NCBI RefSeq assembly: GCF_058153355.1
Contig: NZ_CM177019.1
Length of the DNA stretch: 64,000 bases
Strand: one strand, 5' to 3'
Numbering within the stretch: position 1 is the stretch's first letter; each line of letters opens with the position of its first letter. The position numbers and the translations under genes are program-made. The notes under the pieces are model-generated. The model had not been told where the DNA came from and did not search any database. It was given only the letters and a program-made list of their open reading frames with translations. Below are positions 1 to 63,184 of this stretch, in pieces.

Positions 1-660
1 TGCAACTTAACGCCCAGTTAAGACTCGGTTTCCCTTCGGCTCCCCTATTCGGTTAACCTTGCTACAGAATATAAGTCGCTGACCCATTATACAAAAGGTA
101 CGCAGTCACCCCATAAAGAGGCTCCCACTGCTTGTACGTACACGGTTTCAGGTTCTTTTTCACTCCCCTCGCCGGGGTTCTTTTCGCCTTTCCCTCACGG
201 TACTGGTTCACTATCGGTCAGTCAGGAGTATTTAGCCTTGGAGGATGGTCCCCCCATATTCAGACAGGATACCACGTGTCCCGCCCTACTCATCGAGCTC
301 ACAGCATGTGCATTTTTGTGTACGGGGCTGTCACCCTGTATCGCGCGCCTTTCCAGACGCTTCCACTAACACACACACTGATTCAGGCTCTGGGCTGCTC
401 CCCGTTCGCTCGCCGCTACTGGGGGAATCTCGGTTGATTTCTTTTCCTCGGGGTACTTAGATGTTTCAGTTCCCCCGGTTCGCCTCATTAACCTATGGAT
501 TCAGTTAATGATAGTGTGACGAATCACACTGGGTTTCCCCATTCGGAAATCGCCGGTTATAACGGTTCATATCACCTTACCGACGCTTATCGCAGATTAG
601 CACGTCCTTCATCGCCTCTGACTGCCAGGGCATCCACCGTGTACGCTTAGTCGCTTAACC
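1..660 (-). rRNA. rrlH: 23S ribosomal RNA, 5' portion (partial, continues beyond window start)
   Basis: Reverse complement of 601-660 reads GGTTAAGCGACTAAGCGTACACGGTGGATGCCCTGGCAGTCAGAGGCGATGAAGGACGTG, the canonical enterobacterial 23S 5' end; lies downstream of 16S/tRNA-Ile/tRNA-Ala on the same strand; ORFs here are spurious. Confidence 0.95.
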
Positions 661-10235: not shown

Positions 10236-10340
10236 CCAGCCTCGTCCACAAAATACCGGATGAGGCGTGAGCGCCTTACCCGACCTACAAAATCGTGCTA
10301 ATACAAAATGTTGCATTATTGGCTGTAGGCCTGATAAGCG
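10236..10340. repeat. REP/BIME-type palindromic elements
   Basis: CCGGATGAGGCGTGAGCGCCTTACCCGACCTAC and GCCTGATAAGCGCAGCGCATCAGGC match the GCCGGATG.../GCCTGATGCG... REP consensus family; between convergent yaeF and nlpE. Confidence 0.8.
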
Positions 10341-10384
10341 CAGCGCATCAGGCAATTTTTCGTTTGTTTCTGTCTCAAGACGGA

Positions 10385-12689: not shown

Positions 12690-12730
12690 ACTTTCGCCGG
12701 ATGCGACGTTTGATGCGTCTTATCCGGCTT
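12690..12730. repeat. REP-like palindromic element
   Basis: GCCGGATGCGACGTTTGATGCGTCTTATCCGGC, imperfect palindrome of REP type between convergent rof and tilS. Confidence 0.7.
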
Positions 12731-35764: not shown

Positions 35765-36712
<948 letters not shown>

Positions 36713-36857
36713 TCAGACGATGAATTTTCTATTATAGAAAACGTTCAGTGGCACGTTTGGCGAAATTCAGAATGATTCTCAATTTGCCCGGGTGTGATAC
36801 CATTGACGACACTTACATATATATTGTCGGTATCACCGACGCTGATGGACAGAATTA

Positions 36858-37652
36858 ATGGCTATCTCAATCAAGACCCCAGAAGATATCGAAAAAATGC
36901 GCGTCGCTGGCCGACTGGCTGCCGAAGTGCTGGAAATGATCGAACCGTATGTTAAACCGGGCGTCAGCACCGGCGAGCTGGATCGCATCTGTAATGATTA
37001 CATTGTTAATGAACAACACGCGGTTTCTGCCTGCCTCGGCTATCACGGCTATCCGAAATCCGTTTGCATCTCTATTAATGAAGTGGTGTGCCACGGTATC
37101 CCGGACGACGCCAAGCTGCTGAAAGATGGCGATATCGTTAACATTGATGTCACCGTAATCAAAGATGGTTTCCACGGCGACACCTCGAAAATGTTTATCG
37201 TCGGTAAGCCGACCATCATGGGCGAACGTCTGTGCCGCGTAACGCAAGAGAGTCTTTACCTGGCGCTACGCATGGTAAAACCGGGCATTAATCTGCGCGA
37301 AATCGGCGCGGCGATTCAGAAATTTGTCGAAGCAGAAGGCTTCTCCGTCGTTCGTGAATATTGCGGACACGGTATTGGTCGCGGCTTCCATGAAGAACCG
37401 CAGGTGCTGCATTATGACTCCCGTGAAACCAACGTCGTGCTGAAGCCGGGAATGACCTTCACCATCGAGCCAATGGTCAACGCGGGCAAAAAAGAGATCC
37501 GCACCATGAAAGATGGCTGGACGGTAAAAACCAAAGATCGCAGCTTGTCTGCACAATATGAGCATACTATTGTGGTGACCGATAACGGCTGCGAAATTCT
37601 GACGCTACGCAAGGATGACACCATCCCGGCGATAATCTCGCACGAAGAATAA
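36858..37652 (+). CDS. map: methionine aminopeptidase
   Basis: 264-aa ORF; recognised as Map (metal ligands D97/D108/H171/E204/E235 context). Confidence 0.96.
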   Translation: MAISIKTPEDIEKMRVAGRLAAEVLEMIEPYVKPGVSTGELDRICNDYIVNEQHAVSACLGYHGYPKSVCISINEVVCHGIPDDAKLLKDGDIVNIDVTVIKDGFHGDTSKMFIVGKPTIMGERLCRVTQESLYLALRMVKPGINLREIGAAIQKFVEAEGFSVVREYCGHGIGRGFHEEPQVLHYDSRETNVVLKPGMTFTIEPMVNAGKKEIRTMKDGWTVKTKDRSLSAQYEHTIVVTDNGCEILTLRKDDTIPAIISHEE

Positions 37653-54951: not shown

Positions 54952-55748
54952 CAATAAACAAAACTCACAGGTGCAGCACCCGCCGGATGCGGCAAAATAC
55001 CCATCGGGATGCCATAAATCATTTCGAGGGTTTCGCCGCGCATAATTTCCGCAGGCGTTCCCTGAGCAATCATTTCACCGCCGCGCAGGGCGACCAGATA
55101 ATCACAGTAACGCGCTGCCATATTGATATCGTGCAGTACGGCAATGACCGTCAGACCACGTTCCTGACTTAAACGGTGCACCAGCGCCAGCACATCAACC
55201 TGGTGGGCGATATCCAGCGCCGAGGTCGGTTCGTCCAGCAACAGACAACGGCTATCCTGCGCCACCAGCATGGCGATCCACGCCCGCTGACGTTCACCGC
55301 CTGAGAGGCTATCGACCAGCCGATGCGCCAGCGGTTTTAAGCCAACCAGCGAGATAGCCTCTTCGACCTTTTCGCGATCTGCCGCGCCAAAGCGCCCCAG
55401 CGCGCCATGCCACGGGTAACGACCAATCGCCACCAGTTCACGCACCGTCATCCCTTCTGCCGGAGGAAGCTGCTGCGGCAAATAAGCCACTTTGCGAGCA
55501 AACGCTTTGCTGCTCCAGCTTTCCAGTGGCTGGGCATCAAGAAGAATCTCCCCTTCCGACGGCGGTTGGTGACGGCCAAGCATTTTGAGCAGAGTGGATT
55601 TACCAGAACCGTTGTGACCAATCAGACCGGTCACTTTCCCGGCAGGAAAGGTTAACGACAGCGGATGCAAAAGCGTGCGCCCGGGCACACGAAAGGAGAT
55701 ATTACGCAGTGCAAAAGTGGTATCGGAATGATTCGTGTATTCCTGCAT
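54951..55748 (-). CDS. fhuC: ferric hydroxamate ABC transporter ATP-binding protein
   Basis: ORF track 54951-55790; recognised FhuC starts MQEYTNHSDTTFALRNISFRV (265 aa); Walker A GHNGSGKST. Confidence 0.93.
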   Translation of the reverse strand: MQEYTNHSDTTFALRNISFRVPGRTLLHPLSLTFPAGKVTGLIGHNGSGKSTLLKMLGRHQPPSEGEILLDAQPLESWSSKAFARKVAYLPQQLPPAEGMTVRELVAIGRYPWHGALGRFGAADREKVEEAISLVGLKPLAHRLVDSLSGGERQRAWIAMLVAQDSRCLLLDEPTSALDIAHQVDVLALVHRLSQERGLTVIAVLHDINMAARYCDYLVALRGGEMIAQGTPAEIMRGETLEMIYGIPMGILPHPAGAAPVSFVY

Positions 55749-55798
55749 AACAGCCAACTTGTGAAACGGGCACGGAAATCCGTGCCCCAAAAGAGAAA

Positions 55799-58042
55799 TT
55801 AGAAACGGAAGGTTGCGGTTGCAACGACCTGACGTTCTGCGCCCCAGAAGCAGCCATAGGTATTAAAGCAGCTGGCGACGTATTCACGATCGAACAGGTT
55901 GTTGACATGCAGCGCCACGTTGGAGCCAGCCATGCCGACCCGCGCCAGATCATAACGCACTAACGCATCCACGACCGTATAACTTCCCACTTTAAAGGAG
56001 TTAGCCGGATCACCATAGCTGGAGCCAGTATAACGACCACCAGTACCCAGCGTCAGGCCAGAAAGCGGACCATCAAAGAAGGTGTAGTCAGCCCACAGCG
56101 AAGCCATATGTTTTGGCACCTGCGCAGGCGTATTGCCTTTGTAGGTAGTATCGGTGGTGTATTCCGCATCGGTGTAAGTATAAGAACCTACTACGTTAAC
56201 ACTCGCCGACAGCGCCGCTTTCGCTTCGATTTCTACGCCACGAGCGCGGATTTCACCACCTTCAACCGAGAAGAAGGAACCCTCAGGGTCCGCCATCAGG
56301 TTGTTGGTTTTAGTGAGATTATACACAGCACCAGTAACCACAATTGGGCGATCTTCCGGTACATATTTCACGCCGACCTCATACTGCTTACCTTTAGACG
56401 GCGCAAAAATATTACCATCCTTCCCAACTTGTGAAGAAGGTTCAAACGATTCGCTATAGCTGAAGTAAGGTGTTACACCATTATCAAACAGGTAGTTAAC
56501 ACCACCACGCCAGGTAAACTGTTTGTCATCACGTTTATCGGTCGTCCCTTCAACGCGGTTATGAGACTCTTGATCCGCCCAGTCATAACGACCGCCCAGG
56601 GTGACCAGCACTTTATCCCACTGCGCCTGATCCTGAACATAAACACCCGTTTGTTTCTGCTTATTCAAAATGCGGTAAGGACCGGAGTTTGCCGGATCTT
56701 TCGCATTGAAGTCGAAATCGGTATTCACCGGATTGTACAGATCGAGCAGCGGTACGGAGTCGTCGTAACCAAACCAGGCGTTGATGTCATTACGCATACG
56801 CATAAAGTCGACGCCGGTCAGCAGAGTGTGGTCGATATCGCCAGTGGCAAACTTGCTCTGCAACTGGGTATCAACGGAGAAGTTTTGCAGCTTCTCATCA
56901 TCAACGACGTATTTACGTGCCAGGTAGTGACCTTTATCGGCTGGCGCTAAAGCGGCACACTGTTTGCTGTAAGCATTCGCCGGATCGGAGCAGACGCCGT
57001 AACCATAAACGCTGTTTTGCGAGGTTTTGTTTTCAGCAAAGCGCAGGTTCTGACGCACAGTAAAGGTGTCGTTAAATTCGTGATCGAAGCTGTAGCCCAC
57101 CATCTTCTCATTACGAGAATAGGTGTTGTTCTTCGCCCCTTCGTTAAAATCTGTCGGCAGACGCTTACCGTTCGGCAGCGGCTCAACGGTTCCCTCTTTC
57201 GGCAGCCAGCCGTAATAACCGGTTTCCGGCTCGTTCTGGAAGTAAGAAAGGAAGGTGAAATTGGTTTTATCATCCGGACGCCAGGTAAACGCTGGCGCAA
57301 TGGCATAACGCTGCTCTTCCGCGCCCTTTTGCTGGGCATTGGCAGAGCGCGCAAGACCGGTCAGGCGATAAGAGTAAACACCGTCATCATCCAGCGCATC
57401 GCTAAAGTCAAAACCGGTCTGGAACAGGCTGTCAGTACCGGCTTTAAACTGAACTTCTTTCAGCGGTTCAGTAGTCGGACGCTTGCTGACCATATTCAAC
57501 AGGCCGCCAGGACTGCTTTTACCGTAAAGCACTGAAACCGGGCCACGCATAATTTCAGCGCGTTCCAGCATATACGGGTCAATGACCGCATCGTTATAGA
57601 AGTTGCCCTGCAACTTCAGGCCATTCAGATAGTTATTCTGGCTTTGGCCTTCTGCCGCAAAGCCGCGAATGATCAGGTGGTCATAGGTGTTGGATGCGCC
57701 ACGCGTACCAACAGAGACACCCGGCGTGTAGCTAAGCGCCTCTTTTACTGACTTCGGCTGATGCAGCGCCATCTCTTCGGCGGTCACAACAGAAATAGAC
57801 TGTGGCACTTTTTGAATCGGTGTATCGGTTTTGGTGCCGGTAGCGGACTGTCGCGCCGCAATAGTTGCAGCTGGCCCCCATGCGCTTTCTTGCGGCGCTG
57901 GTGCAGCGGTAACGGTGATAGTGTCTTCTTTCGGTTCAACCGCTGCCTGTGCATAAACAGACATGCCGCTAACCGCTGTGGCTACTACAACTGCAATTTT
58001 ACGCAGTGAGTGTTTTGGCTGAGCAGTTTTGGAACGCGCCAT
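55799..58042 (-). CDS. fhuA: TonB-dependent ferrichrome outer-membrane receptor
   Basis: 747-aa ORF with signal peptide, TonB box and C-terminal ...ATATFRF; recognised as FhuA. Confidence 0.96.
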   Translation of the reverse strand: MARSKTAQPKHSLRKIAVVVATAVSGMSVYAQAAVEPKEDTITVTAAPAPQESAWGPAATIAARQSATGTKTDTPIQKVPQSISVVTAEEMALHQPKSVKEALSYTPGVSVGTRGASNTYDHLIIRGFAAEGQSQNNYLNGLKLQGNFYNDAVIDPYMLERAEIMRGPVSVLYGKSSPGGLLNMVSKRPTTEPLKEVQFKAGTDSLFQTGFDFSDALDDDGVYSYRLTGLARSANAQQKGAEEQRYAIAPAFTWRPDDKTNFTFLSYFQNEPETGYYGWLPKEGTVEPLPNGKRLPTDFNEGAKNNTYSRNEKMVGYSFDHEFNDTFTVRQNLRFAENKTSQNSVYGYGVCSDPANAYSKQCAALAPADKGHYLARKYVVDDEKLQNFSVDTQLQSKFATGDIDHTLLTGVDFMRMRNDINAWFGYDDSVPLLDLYNPVNTDFDFNAKDPANSGPYRILNKQKQTGVYVQDQAQWDKVLVTLGGRYDWADQESHNRVEGTTDKRDDKQFTWRGGVNYLFDNGVTPYFSYSESFEPSSQVGKDGNIFAPSKGKQYEVGVKYVPEDRPIVVTGAVYNLTKTNNLMADPEGSFFSVEGGEIRARGVEIEAKAALSASVNVVGSYTYTDAEYTTDTTYKGNTPAQVPKHMASLWADYTFFDGPLSGLTLGTGGRYTGSSYGDPANSFKVGSYTVVDALVRYDLARVGMAGSNVALHVNNLFDREYVASCFNTYGCFWGAERQVVATATFRF

Positions 58043-58080
58043 TGGTATATCTCTGATGTAAAGTGAATGATAACGTAAAC

Positions 58081-58114
58081 GAGAATGATTATTATAAAGA
58101 TAAGATAATATTCG
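58081..58114 (-). promoter_or_regulatory. Fur box in fhuA promoter
   Basis: GAGAATGATTATTATAAAGATAAGATAATATTCG, GATAAT/ATTATC-type hexamer repeats, 40-70 bp upstream of fhuA start. Confidence 0.7.
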
Positions 58115-58261
58115 AAACGCTGGCGGGTTCGCAAGCGGTACGCAATCTGAGCATTCCTGAGGGGTTAATAAACAATCAGATGAAAAGAAAGGGTTAATAC
58201 TTTGGGTAGGATGTTATTTTACCGGATGGCGACTCGCCATCCGGTATGTCACGCTTAGACG

Positions 58262-60796
58262 TTAATTACTACCAAACATATCCTTGATCCAACCTGCTAC
58301 GCCGTCACTGTCTTTCTGCTCTTGCTGAGCAGGTTGCTGTTGCGGTTGTTGCTGCGGCTGAGAAGACTGATCAAACGGATTGCCTGACGGTTGCTGCTGA
58401 ATCTCACTCTGCTGGCACAGCGATTGCGGATCGCTGGTCCAGACCGGCAAGACACGCATGCCACCGCTGCAAACAAAGTTGCCGTCGTAGTCCACGCCCA
58501 TATCTGCAATATCTTCTGGTGGAACAAGATTCAGCGGTGTTGGTGTCTGGTTAGCCAGATAACGCTGATAAATCGACATTGCCCCACTGGCACCATACAG
58601 TTTGGTCGGCTGGTTGTTATCACGGCCTACCCAGGTGATGGTCACCGTGCTGCCGTCAATGCCCGCAAACCAGGTATCCACGTTGTTGTTGGTAGTCCCG
58701 GTTTTGCCCGCCAGATGCAGGTTCGGGTATTTCGCCCCAAGCTGACGACCCGTACCGCGTTGTACCACCTGCTGCATGGTCCATAGTGTCAGATACGCCG
58801 CCTGCGCCGGAACCGCGCGTTCCGCCTGCGGGAAGCTCTGATACAACACCTTGCCATCTTCCGCGATTACCGAACGCAGCGCAGAAAGCGGTGCTCGGTT
58901 ACCACCGCTGGCGATGGTCTGGAACGCCTGCGCCACTTCAATTGGCGTTAAGTTCAACGCCCCCAGCAGCATTGCCGGAACCGGATGCAGCTGATCTTTC
59001 GGTACGCCCAGTTTAATCCAGGTATCCGTAACCGCAGGCAGCCCCAACGCCATCCCCAGATTTACCGTCGGCACGTTCATCGAACGAGTCAACGCATCCA
59101 CCAGCATCACTCTGCCACTTTCGCTATAACGACGATCATCGTTCTGCGGTGACCAGACCTGGCCATTCGGCTGACGCAGCGCGATTGGCGCATCGGCAAT
59201 CCACGTGTTCAGGCGATAGATTTTCGGCTGGCTTAAGGCCGTCAGATAAGTCGCTGGTTTTGCAAGGGAACCAATCGAACGACGCGCCTGCATCGCACGG
59301 TTGTAACCTGCAAACTGCGGCTCAGAACCACCAACCATCGCACGAACTTCACCACTAAAGCGGTCGACGACCACAATTGCCGTTTCCAGATCGCTTAACT
59401 TACGCTGTTTCTTCAGTGCCGGAATGCCTTCCACGGCGGCTTTTTCCGCCGCGTCCTGAGCCACCGAGTCAAAGGTAGTGAAGATCTTCACGCCGGAGAG
59501 ATCTTTTACCTTATCGCCTAATTTCGCCTGCAGCTCCTGACGCACCAGTTGCATAAAGGCTGGCTGTGGAGAGATTACCCCACCACGCGGCTGAACCCCC
59601 AGCGGACGTGCACTCAACATGTCATAGAGCTCTTGATCAATAATCTGCTGTTGTTGCAGCAGACGCAGCACCAGGTTACGTCGCTCCAGCGCCAGTTTCG
59701 GGTTACGCCACGGGTTGTAGATCGACGCCCCTTTCACCATACCAACCAACAGCGCCTGCTGGTCGAGACTCAGCTCTTCTACCGGGCGACCAAAGTAGTA
59801 CAGGCTCGCCAGCGGGAAACCGCGGATTTCGTTGTCGCCGCTCTGACCGAGATACACCTCGTTCATATACAGCTCAAGAATGCGGTCTTTGCTGTAACGC
59901 GCATCCATGATCAGCGCCATGTAGGCTTCGTTCGCTTTACGCCAGTAAGAGCGCTCGCTGGAGAGGAACAGGTTCTTCACCAACTGCTGGGTCAGCGTAC
60001 TGGCCCCCTGTACCGTACGACCTGCCATCAGGTTCGCCAGCACGGCACGGCCAATGGAATAGAGACTGATCCCATCATGCTCGTAGAAATGACGGTCTTC
60101 AGTCGCCAACAACGTATCCACCAGCAAGTCAGGGAACCCACTGCGCGGCACAAACAGACGCTGCTCACCGTTTGGTGAAGAGATCATGGTGATCAGGCGC
60201 GGATCAAGACGGAAGAAACCGAACTGACGGTTGTTCTCCATATTGACGATGGTCGCCAGATGATCACCATCAAAAGTCAGACGCGCACGTACCTGCCCTT
60301 CTTTACTGTCCGGGAAATCAAACGGACGGCGGATCATTTCAATGCTGTTGGCCTGCACGGTAAATTCGCCAGGGCGCGTCATTTTCGACACCTGACGATA
60401 CTGGGTCGCCTCCAGCAGCTTCACCATCTCGTTTTTGCTGATGGTCATGTCTGGCTCAAGGTTGACCATTCGGCCATAAACAGCCGCAGGCAATTGCCAG
60501 ACTTTGCCATCAATACGGCTACGAATTTTTTGATCGAGATAAACACCGTAAATGGCGATCAGCACGGCAAAAACGATAGCCAGTTTTAGCAGCAGCCATA
60601 GCCAGCCGCGTTTGCCACGAGGCTTACGCCCTTTGCCTTTGCCCTTACCTTTGCGCGGCATCGGTTCTTCATCCTCATAGTCATCATAATCGTCGTAATC
60701 ATCGTCATCTTCGTAACGACGACGGCTTACCTTTTGTTTGACCGGACGCGTCGGTTTCCCTTTGCGTCCAATTGGCTCGCGGTCATTCCCGGCCAT
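58262..60796 (-). CDS. mrcB: penicillin-binding protein 1B (bifunctional glycosyltransferase/transpeptidase)
   Basis: ORF track 58262-60811; recognised PBP1b starts [18 protein letters not shown] (844 aa). Confidence 0.95.
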
Positions 60797-60889
60797 GCTT
60801 TTTCTCCGCAATATTCAGGCGCAAAAGCCCGATTTTCTGTTCTTCTGTAACAAGACAGAAGAAGATATCTCTCAAATTTACTTTGGTCT

Positions 60890-63184
60890 TCATGAATACT
60901 TTTTCGTCCGTCGCGTCGGTGCGGTATTTGCCGGATCATCCGGCCAGACGTGTTTGGGATAACGCCCTTTCATTTCTTTTTGCACCTCGCGATACGCTCC
61001 TTTCCAGAAGGCACTCAAATCTCGTGTGATTTGCAGCGGCCTTTGGGCAGGAGAAAGCAACTCCAGCACCAGCGGCACACGCCCCTGGGCGATCGTCGGA
61101 TTGGTGGCCTCGCCAAACATCTCCTGCATTCTCACCGCCAGCGCGGGCGGGTTATCTTCATGGTAACGAATGGCGATCCGGCTTCCCGTCGGCACAGTGT
61201 AATGCGCAGGCAATTCACTATCCAGACGTTGCTGCATCCCCCAATCAAGTAATCCGCGTAGCGCCTGATAAATATCGAGTGATTTCAGGCCGCGTAGCGA
61301 ATGTACGCCTGCCATATGCGGCAGTAGCCACGTTTCCAGCGTCGCCAACAAACTTTCATCATCAACCGCTGGCCAGTCATATTCTGGCAACCACCTGGCG
61401 GCGCATAACAAACGCAAGCGTAGCTGTTCCGCTTCCGGCGTCCAGTTAAGCACGCTTAAGCCTTTATCACGAACGCCGTTAAGCATCGCCTGATGCAGCT
61501 CGTCTTCTGAAGGCTTCGCCAGCGGCTGCACTTTTACCGTCAGTTGACCAATTTGCAACCGACGCCAGGCTTTCAGCGTACCTTGCGCATCATCCCACTC
61601 CACGGTGTCCGATTGCTGCACCAGCTGCGGACAGCGTTGCACTAATTCATCGATATCGACCGGTAGCGCCAGTAAAATCCGCGCATCCGGCGAGGCGCTA
61701 CCCTGCAATAATAACGGTGCGATAAGCGAACTGTCTGCCTCACCGCCGCGTACGTTTAAGCGCTTTAACAGTTGCTGGCTACGTTGCTGCCAGGCAGGTT
61801 GATTGCGCGAAAACGCCACGCCCAGATCGATATTGCCCATCCGTGGTGGCTCTTCGAGAATAGCGGCAATTTTTGCAGCGGTAGCAGCTTCGTCGTCGCT
61901 CTTTACGCTCACCAGCATTGCCGCTAAACGCGGATCGTTACCCAGCGTCGCCATTTTCTGCCCTTTCGTGCTTAGCCGTTCACCGTCCATCGCCCCCAGC
62001 ATCCGCAACAGGCGTTTCGCGGCCTGTAAATTCACGGCTGGCGGTTGATCCAGCCAGCTCATCTGCGCCGGATCGCTGCATCCCCATTGCAGTAATTCCA
62101 TCAGCAAACCGGAAAGATCGCTTTGTAAGATCTCCGGTTCACTTTGTGCGGCAGCGCGTTCTGCTTGTTCTTTGGCGATTAAATGCAGGCAGATACCCGG
62201 CTCCAGACGCCCGGCACGCCCGGCACGCTGCGTCATCGACGCCTGACTGATTCGCTGAGTAATCAACCGCGTAAGTCCTGTACGCGGATCAAAACGCGCC
62301 ACCCTTTCCTGGGCGCAATCCACCACCAGACGAATACCTTCGATGGTTAAACTGGTTTCAGCAATATTGGTTGCCAGCACCACTTTGCGCATCCCTTCTG
62401 GTGCCGGAAGGATCGCTTTTCGCTGATCGTTCAGCGACAACGCGCCATACAGCGGGCAGAGCAACACATCACTACCGATGCGCGAAGCCAGTTGTTCCTG
62501 AACGCGCTGAATTTCTCCGACACCAGGTAAAAATAACAGTAATGAGCCGCTTTCCTGATGCAGCAATTCGGCGGTGGCAACCGCCACGGCTTCATCAAAA
62601 CGCTGATGAGCGAGCAGCGGTAAATATCGGCGTTCAACCGGAAATGAGCGCCCTTCTGAGATGACGACGGGCGCTTCTGGCAGCATCTGCTGCAAGCGGT
62701 CATTGTCCAGCGTAGCCGACATAATCAGTAGTTTAAGGTCATCACGCAGACCTTGTTGCACATCGAGTAACAGCGCCAACGCCAGATCCGCCTGCAAGCT
62801 GCGCTCATGAAACTCATCGAGGATCACCAATCCAACGCCGCTCAGTTCAGGGTCACGCTGGATCATGCGCGTCAACACGCCTTCGGTAACTACTTCCAGG
62901 CGAGTATTTGGCCCGACACAGTTTTGCGCGCGCATCCGGTAGCCTACCGTATCACCTGTTTTTTCGTTAAGCAGTTCCGCCAGTCGTTGCGCAACGTTAC
63001 GCGCCGCCAGGCGACGCGGCTCCAGCAGGATAATTTTTCCGTTAATGCCGGGATGCGCCAGCAGTTGCAGCGGCAGCCAGGTTGATTTCCCGGCCCCGGT
63101 CGGCGCACTTAATAACACCTGCGGTGCACCATCGAGGGCAGCAAGTAACTCAGGTAAGACGACGGCAACGGGCAACGACGACAC
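60890..63184 (-). CDS. hrpB: ATP-dependent RNA helicase HrpB (DEAH-box); appears about 45 codons shorter than the K-12 reference I recall
   Basis: ORF track 60890-63229 (779 aa from ATG); recalled HrpB start (M)SSLPVAVVLPELLAAL corresponds to the GTG at 63182-63184, giving 764 aa; motifs GAGKST, DEFH, SAT present. Confidence 0.85.
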   Translation of the reverse strand: MSSLPVAVVLPELLAALDGAPQVLLSAPTGAGKSTWLPLQLLAHPGINGKIILLEPRRLAARNVAQRLAELLNEKTGDTVGYRMRAQNCVGPNTRLEVVTEGVLTRMIQRDPELSGVGLVILDEFHERSLQADLALALLLDVQQGLRDDLKLLIMSATLDNDRLQQMLPEAPVVISEGRSFPVERRYLPLLAHQRFDEAVAVATAELLHQESGSLLLFLPGVGEIQRVQEQLASRIGSDVLLCPLYGALSLNDQRKAILPAPEGMRKVVLATNIAETSLTIEGIRLVVDCAQERVARFDPRTGLTRLITQRISQASMTQRAGRAGRLEPGICLHLIAKEQAERAAAQSEPEILQSDLSGLLMELLQWGCSDPAQMSWLDQPPAVNLQAAKRLLRMLGAMDGERLSTKGQKMATLGNDPRLAAMLVSVKSDDEAATAAKIAAILEEPPRMGNIDLGVAFSRNQPAWQQRSQQLLKRLNVRGGEADSSLIAPLLLQGSASPDARILLALPVDIDELVQRCPQLVQQSDTVEWDDAQGTLKAWRRLQIGQLTVKVQPLAKPSEDELHQAMLNGVRDKGLSVLNWTPEAEQLRLRLLCAARWLPEYDWPAVDDESLLATLETWLLPHMAGVHSLRGLKSLDIYQALRGLLDWGMQQRLDSELPAHYTVPTGSRIAIRYHEDNPPALAVRMQEMFGEATNPTIAQGRVPLVLELLSPAQRPLQITRDLSAFWKGAYREVQKEMKGRYPKHVWPDDPANTAPTRRTKKYS

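Follow-up and report, generated by a model that had tools for sequence, protein, structure and literature searches.

The Fur operator of fhuA is a textbook case of iron repression, and FhuA itself serves as the receptor for phages, colicins and sideromycins. In Escherichia coli K-12, fhuA was described in 2007 by Chen et al. as a cluster of three Fur sites over 31 bp at position 167439 of the K-12 genome; the cluster scores 19.5 bits and its binding by Fur was confirmed by gel shift (PMC2189734). In the Fur ChIP-exo data that Gao et al. reported in 2023, peaks lie at 167456-167466 for MG1655 and at 167456-167468 for W3110, and fhuACDB was upregulated in fur-deletion strains, the log2 change of fhuA being 1.07-5.0 in eight of nine cases and 0 in the other (PMC10164565). 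A further regulator has been described for the fhu promoter of Salmonella Typhimurium, where HypT, an HOCl-responsive LysR-type repressor, leaves DNase I footprints on TTACGTTATCATTCA at +7 to +21 and on AACCCTTCCTTTTCA at -111 to -97 (PMC6397515). The docking model of HypT places two motifs 25-30 nt apart and predicts a partner half-site for the reduced tetramer. REPs of E. coli are imperfect palindromes preceded by GTAG that contain an AA-GC bulge, both of which are required for processing; a K-12 genome contains about 600 of them, frequently as pairs within BIMEs (PMC8266576).

The window analyzed here is a stretch of 64,000 nucleotides from contig NZ_CM177019.1 (RefSeq assembly GCF_058153355.1), to which all coordinates refer unless K-12 is named. 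In this window, the ORF ends define a mrcB-fhuA intergenic spacer at 58043-58261 on the minus strand, flanked by the mrcB stop codon TAA (58262-58264, minus strand) and the fhuA start codon ATG (58040-58042, minus strand). The fhuA ORF extends from 58042 to 55799 on the minus strand and encodes 747 aa; a Shine-Dalgarno-like AGAGA (58050-58054, minus strand) lies 7 nt 5' of the ATG and is about 90% conserved. The initial annotation had given the spacer as 219 bp between the mrcB 3' end and fhuA, and this length is exact. Its strand had to be corrected, as mrcB, fhuA and the promoter are in fact all encoded on the minus strand. It aligns collinearly and free of indels with 167265-167483 of K-12 MG1655, the window position being 225526 minus the K-12 coordinate. 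Locus, gene order and the spacer length of 219 bp are shared with K-12. The promoter half, from about 58140 to the fhuA ATG, contains the complete Fur array and shows 100% identity to K-12, whereas the mrcB-proximal half differs by about nine substitutions.

A 501-bp query spanning the spacer found a match in all but two of the 5426 complete E. coli genomes, and in these 5424 the matched region is annotated as mrcB and fhuA. Identity of at least 99% over this query was reached in only 15 of the 5424 genomes, and the mrcB-fhuA stretch is somewhat divergent from that of most E. coli: the surrounding 3.4 kb are 95.9% identical to K-12, and identity to Escherichia whittamii is 93.8%. When positions 55000-61000 were compared, mrcB and the 5' third of fhuA showed 98.0% identity to strain Z0117EC0005. 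No alignment with this strain was returned across most of fhuA, and its FhuA has 731 aa compared to 747 aa here. An Rfam scan of 57800-58500 yielded chance-level matches only (E > 5, far below the gathering scores). Far from the spacer, about 2250-2560 resembles a minus-strand 16S rRNA in its 5' part, and the window would presumably start inside an rRNA operon. FhuA was searched in one genome per species, which gave 78 loci with mrcB directly upstream in 57 and spacers of 210-490 bp. These 57 spacers of Enterobacteriaceae and the spacer of the window form the set of 58 used below.

GATAAT-like hexamers are arrayed at 58063-58114 and make up the Fur operator, which is recognized by consensus, the ChIP-exo motif, array score, conservation and the K-12 literature. 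Read on the plus strand from 58063, it consists of the degenerate hexamers GTGAAT, GATAAC, GTAAAC, GAGAAT, GATTAT, TATAAA and GATAAG; the operator core (58080-58099) reads CTTTATAATAATCATTCTC on the minus strand. The initial annotation had placed an array of GATAAT/ATTATC hexamers at 58081-58114. A Fur-box-like array is present there, but it starts 18 bp further toward fhuA, at 58063, and contains a single exact hexamer, the GATAAT at 58104-58109 that is out of register and reads ATTATC on the other strand. Our scoring combined a 19-mer consensus, the ChIP-exo motif and the hexamer array with shuffles. The best match to the 19-mer GATAATGATAATCATTATC is 14/19 at 58081-58099, a value reached at five of about 128,000 positions of the window, and matches of 13/19 overlap this best site in a 6-bp register. 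TAATAATCATTCTCG (58094-58080) differs from the ChIP-exo motif TGAnAATnATTcTCA by two mismatches, with 11 of the 13 specified bases matching; five such matches occur in the window against 1.08 expected, and about 0.004 would be expected per 219 bp. In all 58 spacers, the site that agrees best with the Fur consensus over the full spacer length lies 31-41 nt 5' of the fhuA ATG, and 58095-58064 shows about 90-100% column identity over the 58 sequences. On window coordinates, the cluster of Chen et al. falls at 58087 (PMC2189734) and the ChIP-exo peaks at 58060-58070 (PMC10164565). Taken together, window statistics, position in the 57 other spacers and published K-12 experiments support the earlier proposal that this operator mediates iron repression of fhuACDB, binding and regulation being taken from the literature on the identical K-12 sequence.

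Further ChIP-exo peaks of Gao et al. flank the spacer within mrcB (58272-58308) and fhuA (57854-57885). We rejected these as operators, as they contain no Fur-like motif (best matches 10/19 and 7/19, respectively). A report on a fhuA promoter (PMC3621691) was set aside because it concerns Vibrio cholerae and is not relevant to the window sequence. Elsewhere in the window, a second Fur box, TGAGAATCATTCTGA, was found at 36767-36781. It is a nearly perfect palindrome with one mismatch to the ChIP-exo motif and 13/19 matches to the classic consensus, and it lies in the divergent spacer between an ORF at 35765-36688 (minus strand) and a 264-aa ORF of the size of map at 36858-37652 (plus strand). 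It corresponds to about 189590 in K-12, within a Fur ChIP-exo peak at 189588-189600 that has been published and attributed to map (PMC10164565). The second-best GATAAT array of the window, at 60665-60683 near the 5' end of mrcB, scores 27-28/42 with seven hexamers; it is AT-rich and its score is probably compositional.

The HypT footprints known from Salmonella can be placed on the spacer as well. The proximal sequence TTACGTTATCATTCA occurs unchanged at 58064-58078 (minus strand) and is exact in 40 of the 58 spacers. The distal candidate site, AACCCTTtCTTTTCA at 58181-58195 (minus strand), has one mismatch to AACCCTTCCTTTTCA, is moderately conserved over the spacers and would occupy -111 to -97 if transcription starts at 58084. 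Both footprints, once placed, agree on a start at 58084 (minus strand) and on TATAAT at 58096-58091 as the -10 hexamer (-12 to -7), which would give a 5' UTR of 41 nt (58083-58043). This start is second-hand, as it follows the numbering of the Salmonella paper, which adopts the E. coli start (PMC6397515). By sequence identity at the published distances from the promoter, the two stretches qualify as candidate HypT operators, and the fhuA promoter DNA of the window would present HypT with the same arrangement as the one footprinted in Salmonella; HypT binding was footprinted there and is predicted here from the sequence match.

Further upstream, the best-conserved block in the conservation profile is TCTGATTGTTTATTAACCCCTC at 58158-58179 (minus strand, -95 to -74). 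A 9-nt direct repeat, TATTAACCC, is present in two copies with a spacing of 29 nt; the second copy (58170-58162) lies within the conserved block and the first (58191-58199) overlaps the distal HypT footprint. Two TTAAMCC motifs are kept in only 16 of the 58 spacers. Inspection of the upstream block and the leader by eye revealed no convincing match to the IscR type-2 or the CRP consensus. The block might act as an undescribed operator, either as the partner half-site of HypT or for another regulator of fhuACDB, and the REP-derived hairpin discussed below might tune PBP1b output or insulate fhuA from mrcB read-through; we give this set of ideas only a slim chance.

The spacer half from 58043 to about 58140 is the sigma-70 promoter of fhuACDB. 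The Fur array overlaps both candidate -10 hexamers of this promoter (TATTAT at 58110-58105 and TATAAT at 58096-58091) as well as the transcription start and the early 5' UTR. With ample iron, Fe2+-Fur would bind and oligomerize along 58063-58114, from the -10 region across the start site to about 20 nt into the transcribed sequence, and RNA polymerase would be excluded. When iron is scarce, Fur would depart and the genes of the ferrichrome receptor and transporter would be expressed. Whichever -10 hexamer is used, a Fur array over the -10 region and the start site represents the classical occlusion mechanism.

The mrcB-proximal half of the spacer contains a perfect palindrome, TACCGGATGGCGACTCGCCATCCGGTA, at 58220-58246 (minus strand), which forms an RNA hairpin in the mrcB 3' UTR. 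It is composed of 13 + 1 + 13 nt, and its arms are 100% complementary, which was matched by none of 100 shuffles. The initial annotation had reported a REP-like palindrome at about 58218-58245 that partly overlaps the mrcB stop region. A palindrome does exist there, but it reads (T)ACCGGATGGCGACTCGCCATCCGGT(A) at 58220-58246 with A, not G, as its first base, and instead of an overlap there are 15 nt between the palindrome and the stop codon. As mrcB-strand RNA, the hairpin alone folds with -21.3 kcal/mol, and its 76-nt context with -28.5 kcal/mol (z = -5.3). Within Escherichia the apex is the sole variable position of the hairpin (C, T or A), and covariation support was not obtained; the apex is C here and T in K-12, which results in one extra G-C pair in the window.

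At the same position after mrcB, two Salmonella enterica subspecies and two Citrobacter amalonaticus-like genomes (L007, L075, L024 and L035) carry a GTAG-tagged REP pair of the form GCCGG(A/G)TGGCG...CCGGCCTAC, linker, GTAGGCCGGATAAG(A/G)CG...GTCGCCATCCGG(C/T)A. The left arm of the palindrome, ACCGGATGGCG, corresponds to the outer arm of the first REP and its right arm, GTCGCCATCCGGTA, to that of the second, and a block AAATAACAT(T/C)C that follows the REP pair in these relatives also follows the Escherichia palindrome on its 3' side. Spacers with the REP pair measure 284-295 bp (293-295 bp in Salmonella) compared to 219 bp in the window. This difference of about 65-76 bp fits a deletion of roughly 65-75 bp, and as the two outer arms in an inverted pair complement each other, a perfect palindrome would be left after loss of the interior. 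According to this scenario, a REP pair (BIME) would have lost its interior, including the GTAG/CTAC tags and the bulges, to yield the 27-nt perfect palindrome. Alternatively, in the MAFFT alignment the palindrome is paired only with the second REP, whose bulge nucleotides it lacks; the matched stretches are short. Under either alignment, short arm matches and position suggest that the palindrome is most likely a relic of a REP or BIME. The earlier label REP-like is therefore fair as a statement of resemblance and probable ancestry, given the arm matches to the Salmonella/C. amalonaticus pair, but the element is not a canonical REP. Sequences of the canonical REP type are present elsewhere in the window (GCCGGATGCGACGTTTGATGCGTCTTATCCGGC and GTAGGCCTGATAAGCGCAGCGCATCAGGCA, at about 12696-12728 and 10325-10355) and would be useful as comparators for the palindrome.

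All 58 spacers contain a strong hairpin no further than about 110 nt from the stop codon of mrcB. In the Citrobacter freundii group, Enterobacter, Leclercia, Kosakonia, Buttiauxella and others, Rho-independent terminators follow mrcB at the same position as the hairpin of the window and with comparable stem stability. They are located about 5-45 nt from the stop codon and consist of A-tract, stem and U-tract, whereas the hairpin of the window has no U-tract and its sequence is unrelated to theirs. Variation also occurs within E. coli, as about 570 of the 5426 complete genomes gave no match to the palindrome segment. In two such genomes that we examined (L003, 1441-1661, and L004, 1629-1970), the place of 58205-58261 is taken by a chaperone-usher fimbrial operon located between mrcB and fhuA. 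L003 retains the fhuA promoter and the Fur box while its distal HypT region has diverged; L004 has a different strong hairpin, GCTCTCCGCTTATGCGGAGAGC, after mrcB. The hairpins after mrcB in all 58 spacers and in the strain with the fimbrial island indicate that a stable 3' hairpin recurs while its sequence turns over. Judging from position and predicted stability, the palindrome hairpin may mark or protect the 3' end of the mrcB mRNA and limit read-through into fhuA. In most other Enterobacteriaceae, intrinsic terminators at the same position would fill this role. A literature search for data on the mrcB 3' end such as Term-seq returned nothing usable.

The promoter half of the spacer can be read in other ways. 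With a GC content of 31%, the region could be AT-rich promoter DNA whose hexamers mimic a Fur box by composition and are not acted on by Fur at all. Single scores leave room for this, since the 3-hexamer score of 14/18 was reached by 99-153 of 2000 shuffles and the 14/19 consensus match by 36-42 of 2000, and a search for the classic Fur 19-mer with at most three mismatches found no site. As a single 3-hexamer or 19-mer score is not decisive, the case for Fur rests on the array and not on one box. When five or seven consecutive hexamers were compared to GATAAT in either orientation, both scores at fhuA were the highest of the 64-kb window; in 2000 attempts, shuffles of the spacer that preserve dinucleotides reached the 5-hexamer score once and the 7-hexamer score never, and shuffling of the AT-rich 83 bp alone reached them six times and never, respectively. 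The initial annotation had named the lack of any Fur match above background as the outcome that would speak against it, and consensus, ChIP-exo motif and array scores all turned out to lie above chance. Moreover, the Fur match is fixed in position across the 58 spacers, and gel shift, ChIP-exo and fur-deletion RNA-seq data have been published for the identical K-12 sequence, so that mimicry by composition is hardly credible. The position of the main promoter is less settled. Instead of TATAAT with a start at 58084, fhuA could mainly use TTGCGA (58134-58129) and TATTAT (58110-58105) separated by 18 nt (58105-58134, minus strand) with a start near 58098, or both promoters could be in use; the Fur array would then cover -10 to about +35. 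This element was the sole minus-strand promoter-like call of our consensus scan (9/12). Its pattern, TTGnnA-17..19-TATTAT, is kept in 46 of the 58 spacers with both hexamers about 90% conserved, compared to 11 of 58 for TATAAT itself. On the other hand, the literature numbering implies 58084, the 18-nt spacer is suboptimal, and [CT]ATAATAAT is present in 55 of 58 spacers, the first T being C in most genera; [CT]ATAAT is still a usable -10 hexamer. A literature search for a measured fhuA transcription start in E. coli returned nothing usable. Overall, we consider it a real possibility, though less likely than not, that TTGCGA-18-TATTAT is the main promoter or shares this role. A promoter-like match on the plus strand, ATGATA-17-TATTAT (58067-58095), was discarded as it is the Fur box read on the opposite strand.

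The palindrome, too, admits readings other than that of a relic with a role as mrcB 3' hairpin. It could be a functional REP of the present day on which the REP-associated transposase acts and which belongs to the high-copy y/z family. Its 27 nt in an intergenic spacer agree with the 20-50 nt of extragenic stem-loop palindromes of this kind, and like REPs and BIMEs (y, z1, z2; PMC8266576, PMC2817692) it is extragenic and GC-rich, with CCGGAT...ATCCGG as outer stem and GCG/CGC as inner stem; in addition, true REPs occupy the same position in relatives. However, these relatives' REPs do carry GTAGGCCGGAT or ATCCGGCCTAC, whereas the minus-strand flanks of the palindrome are GACAT before ACCGG and AAAAT after CCGGT, without GTAG or CTAC beside the stem. 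Furthermore, the 13-nt stem is perfect and lacks the AA-GC bulge, and tag and bulge are both required for the processing of E. coli REPs (PMC8266576). Finally, the window contains no second copy of the palindrome when up to three mismatches are allowed, and E. coli genomes contain a median of three and a maximum of four blastn places for it (E <= 10), a count that probably includes the self-match of the palindrome on both strands, compared to the hundreds of copies expected of a REP and the ~600 REPs of K-12. With neither GTAG/CTAC nor a bulge, a single occurrence in the window and few copies per genome, the palindrome is not a member of the REP family, and a current function as REP is very improbable. 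A different origin would apply if the hairpin were an efficient terminator of mrcB that fully insulates fhuA and arose independently of REPs. This would be in line with its strong GC-rich stem 15 nt past the mrcB stop codon, with the different strong hairpin directly after mrcB in E. coli with the fimbrial island and with the frequency of classical terminators at the same position: hairpins with a T-run were counted in at least 35 of the 58 spacers under a strict gapless-stem rule (A-tract, stem, T-run). None of the four Escherichia spacers was among them. The stem of the palindrome is followed by AAAAUAACAU on the transcribed strand (AAAATAA) and not directly by a U-tract as in an intrinsic terminator, and the terminator scan returned no terminator-like call on the minus strand. 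As the arms and the downstream block also align with the Salmonella/Citrobacter REP pair, we regard an efficient terminator of independent origin as unlikely and retain the reading of the palindrome as a REP/BIME relic that serves as mrcB 3' hairpin.

We are confident that the spacer is the standard mrcB-fhuA intergenic region of Escherichia, in which the Fur-controlled fhuACDB promoter is joined to a hairpin that is most likely a REP/BIME relic and would act as the 3' hairpin of mrcB. The fhuACDB promoter and its Fur operator are already well characterized, their sequence here is the same as in K-12, and nothing about them will surprise a specialist; beyond its correct annotation, the spacer is of little importance. 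Modest and testable by-products are the conserved upstream block and the question of which -10 hexamer is used, and given the conservation of TTGCGA-18-TATTAT the fhuA transcription start may deserve re-examination. A further modest by-product is that the occupant of the position after mrcB differs between lineages: it can be an intrinsic terminator, a pair of REPs, the relic of one or a hairpin beside a fimbrial island. If the relic hairpin does tune PBP1b output or insulate fhuA, different lineages would have solved this task by different means, some with a terminator, some with a REP pair and some with such a relic.
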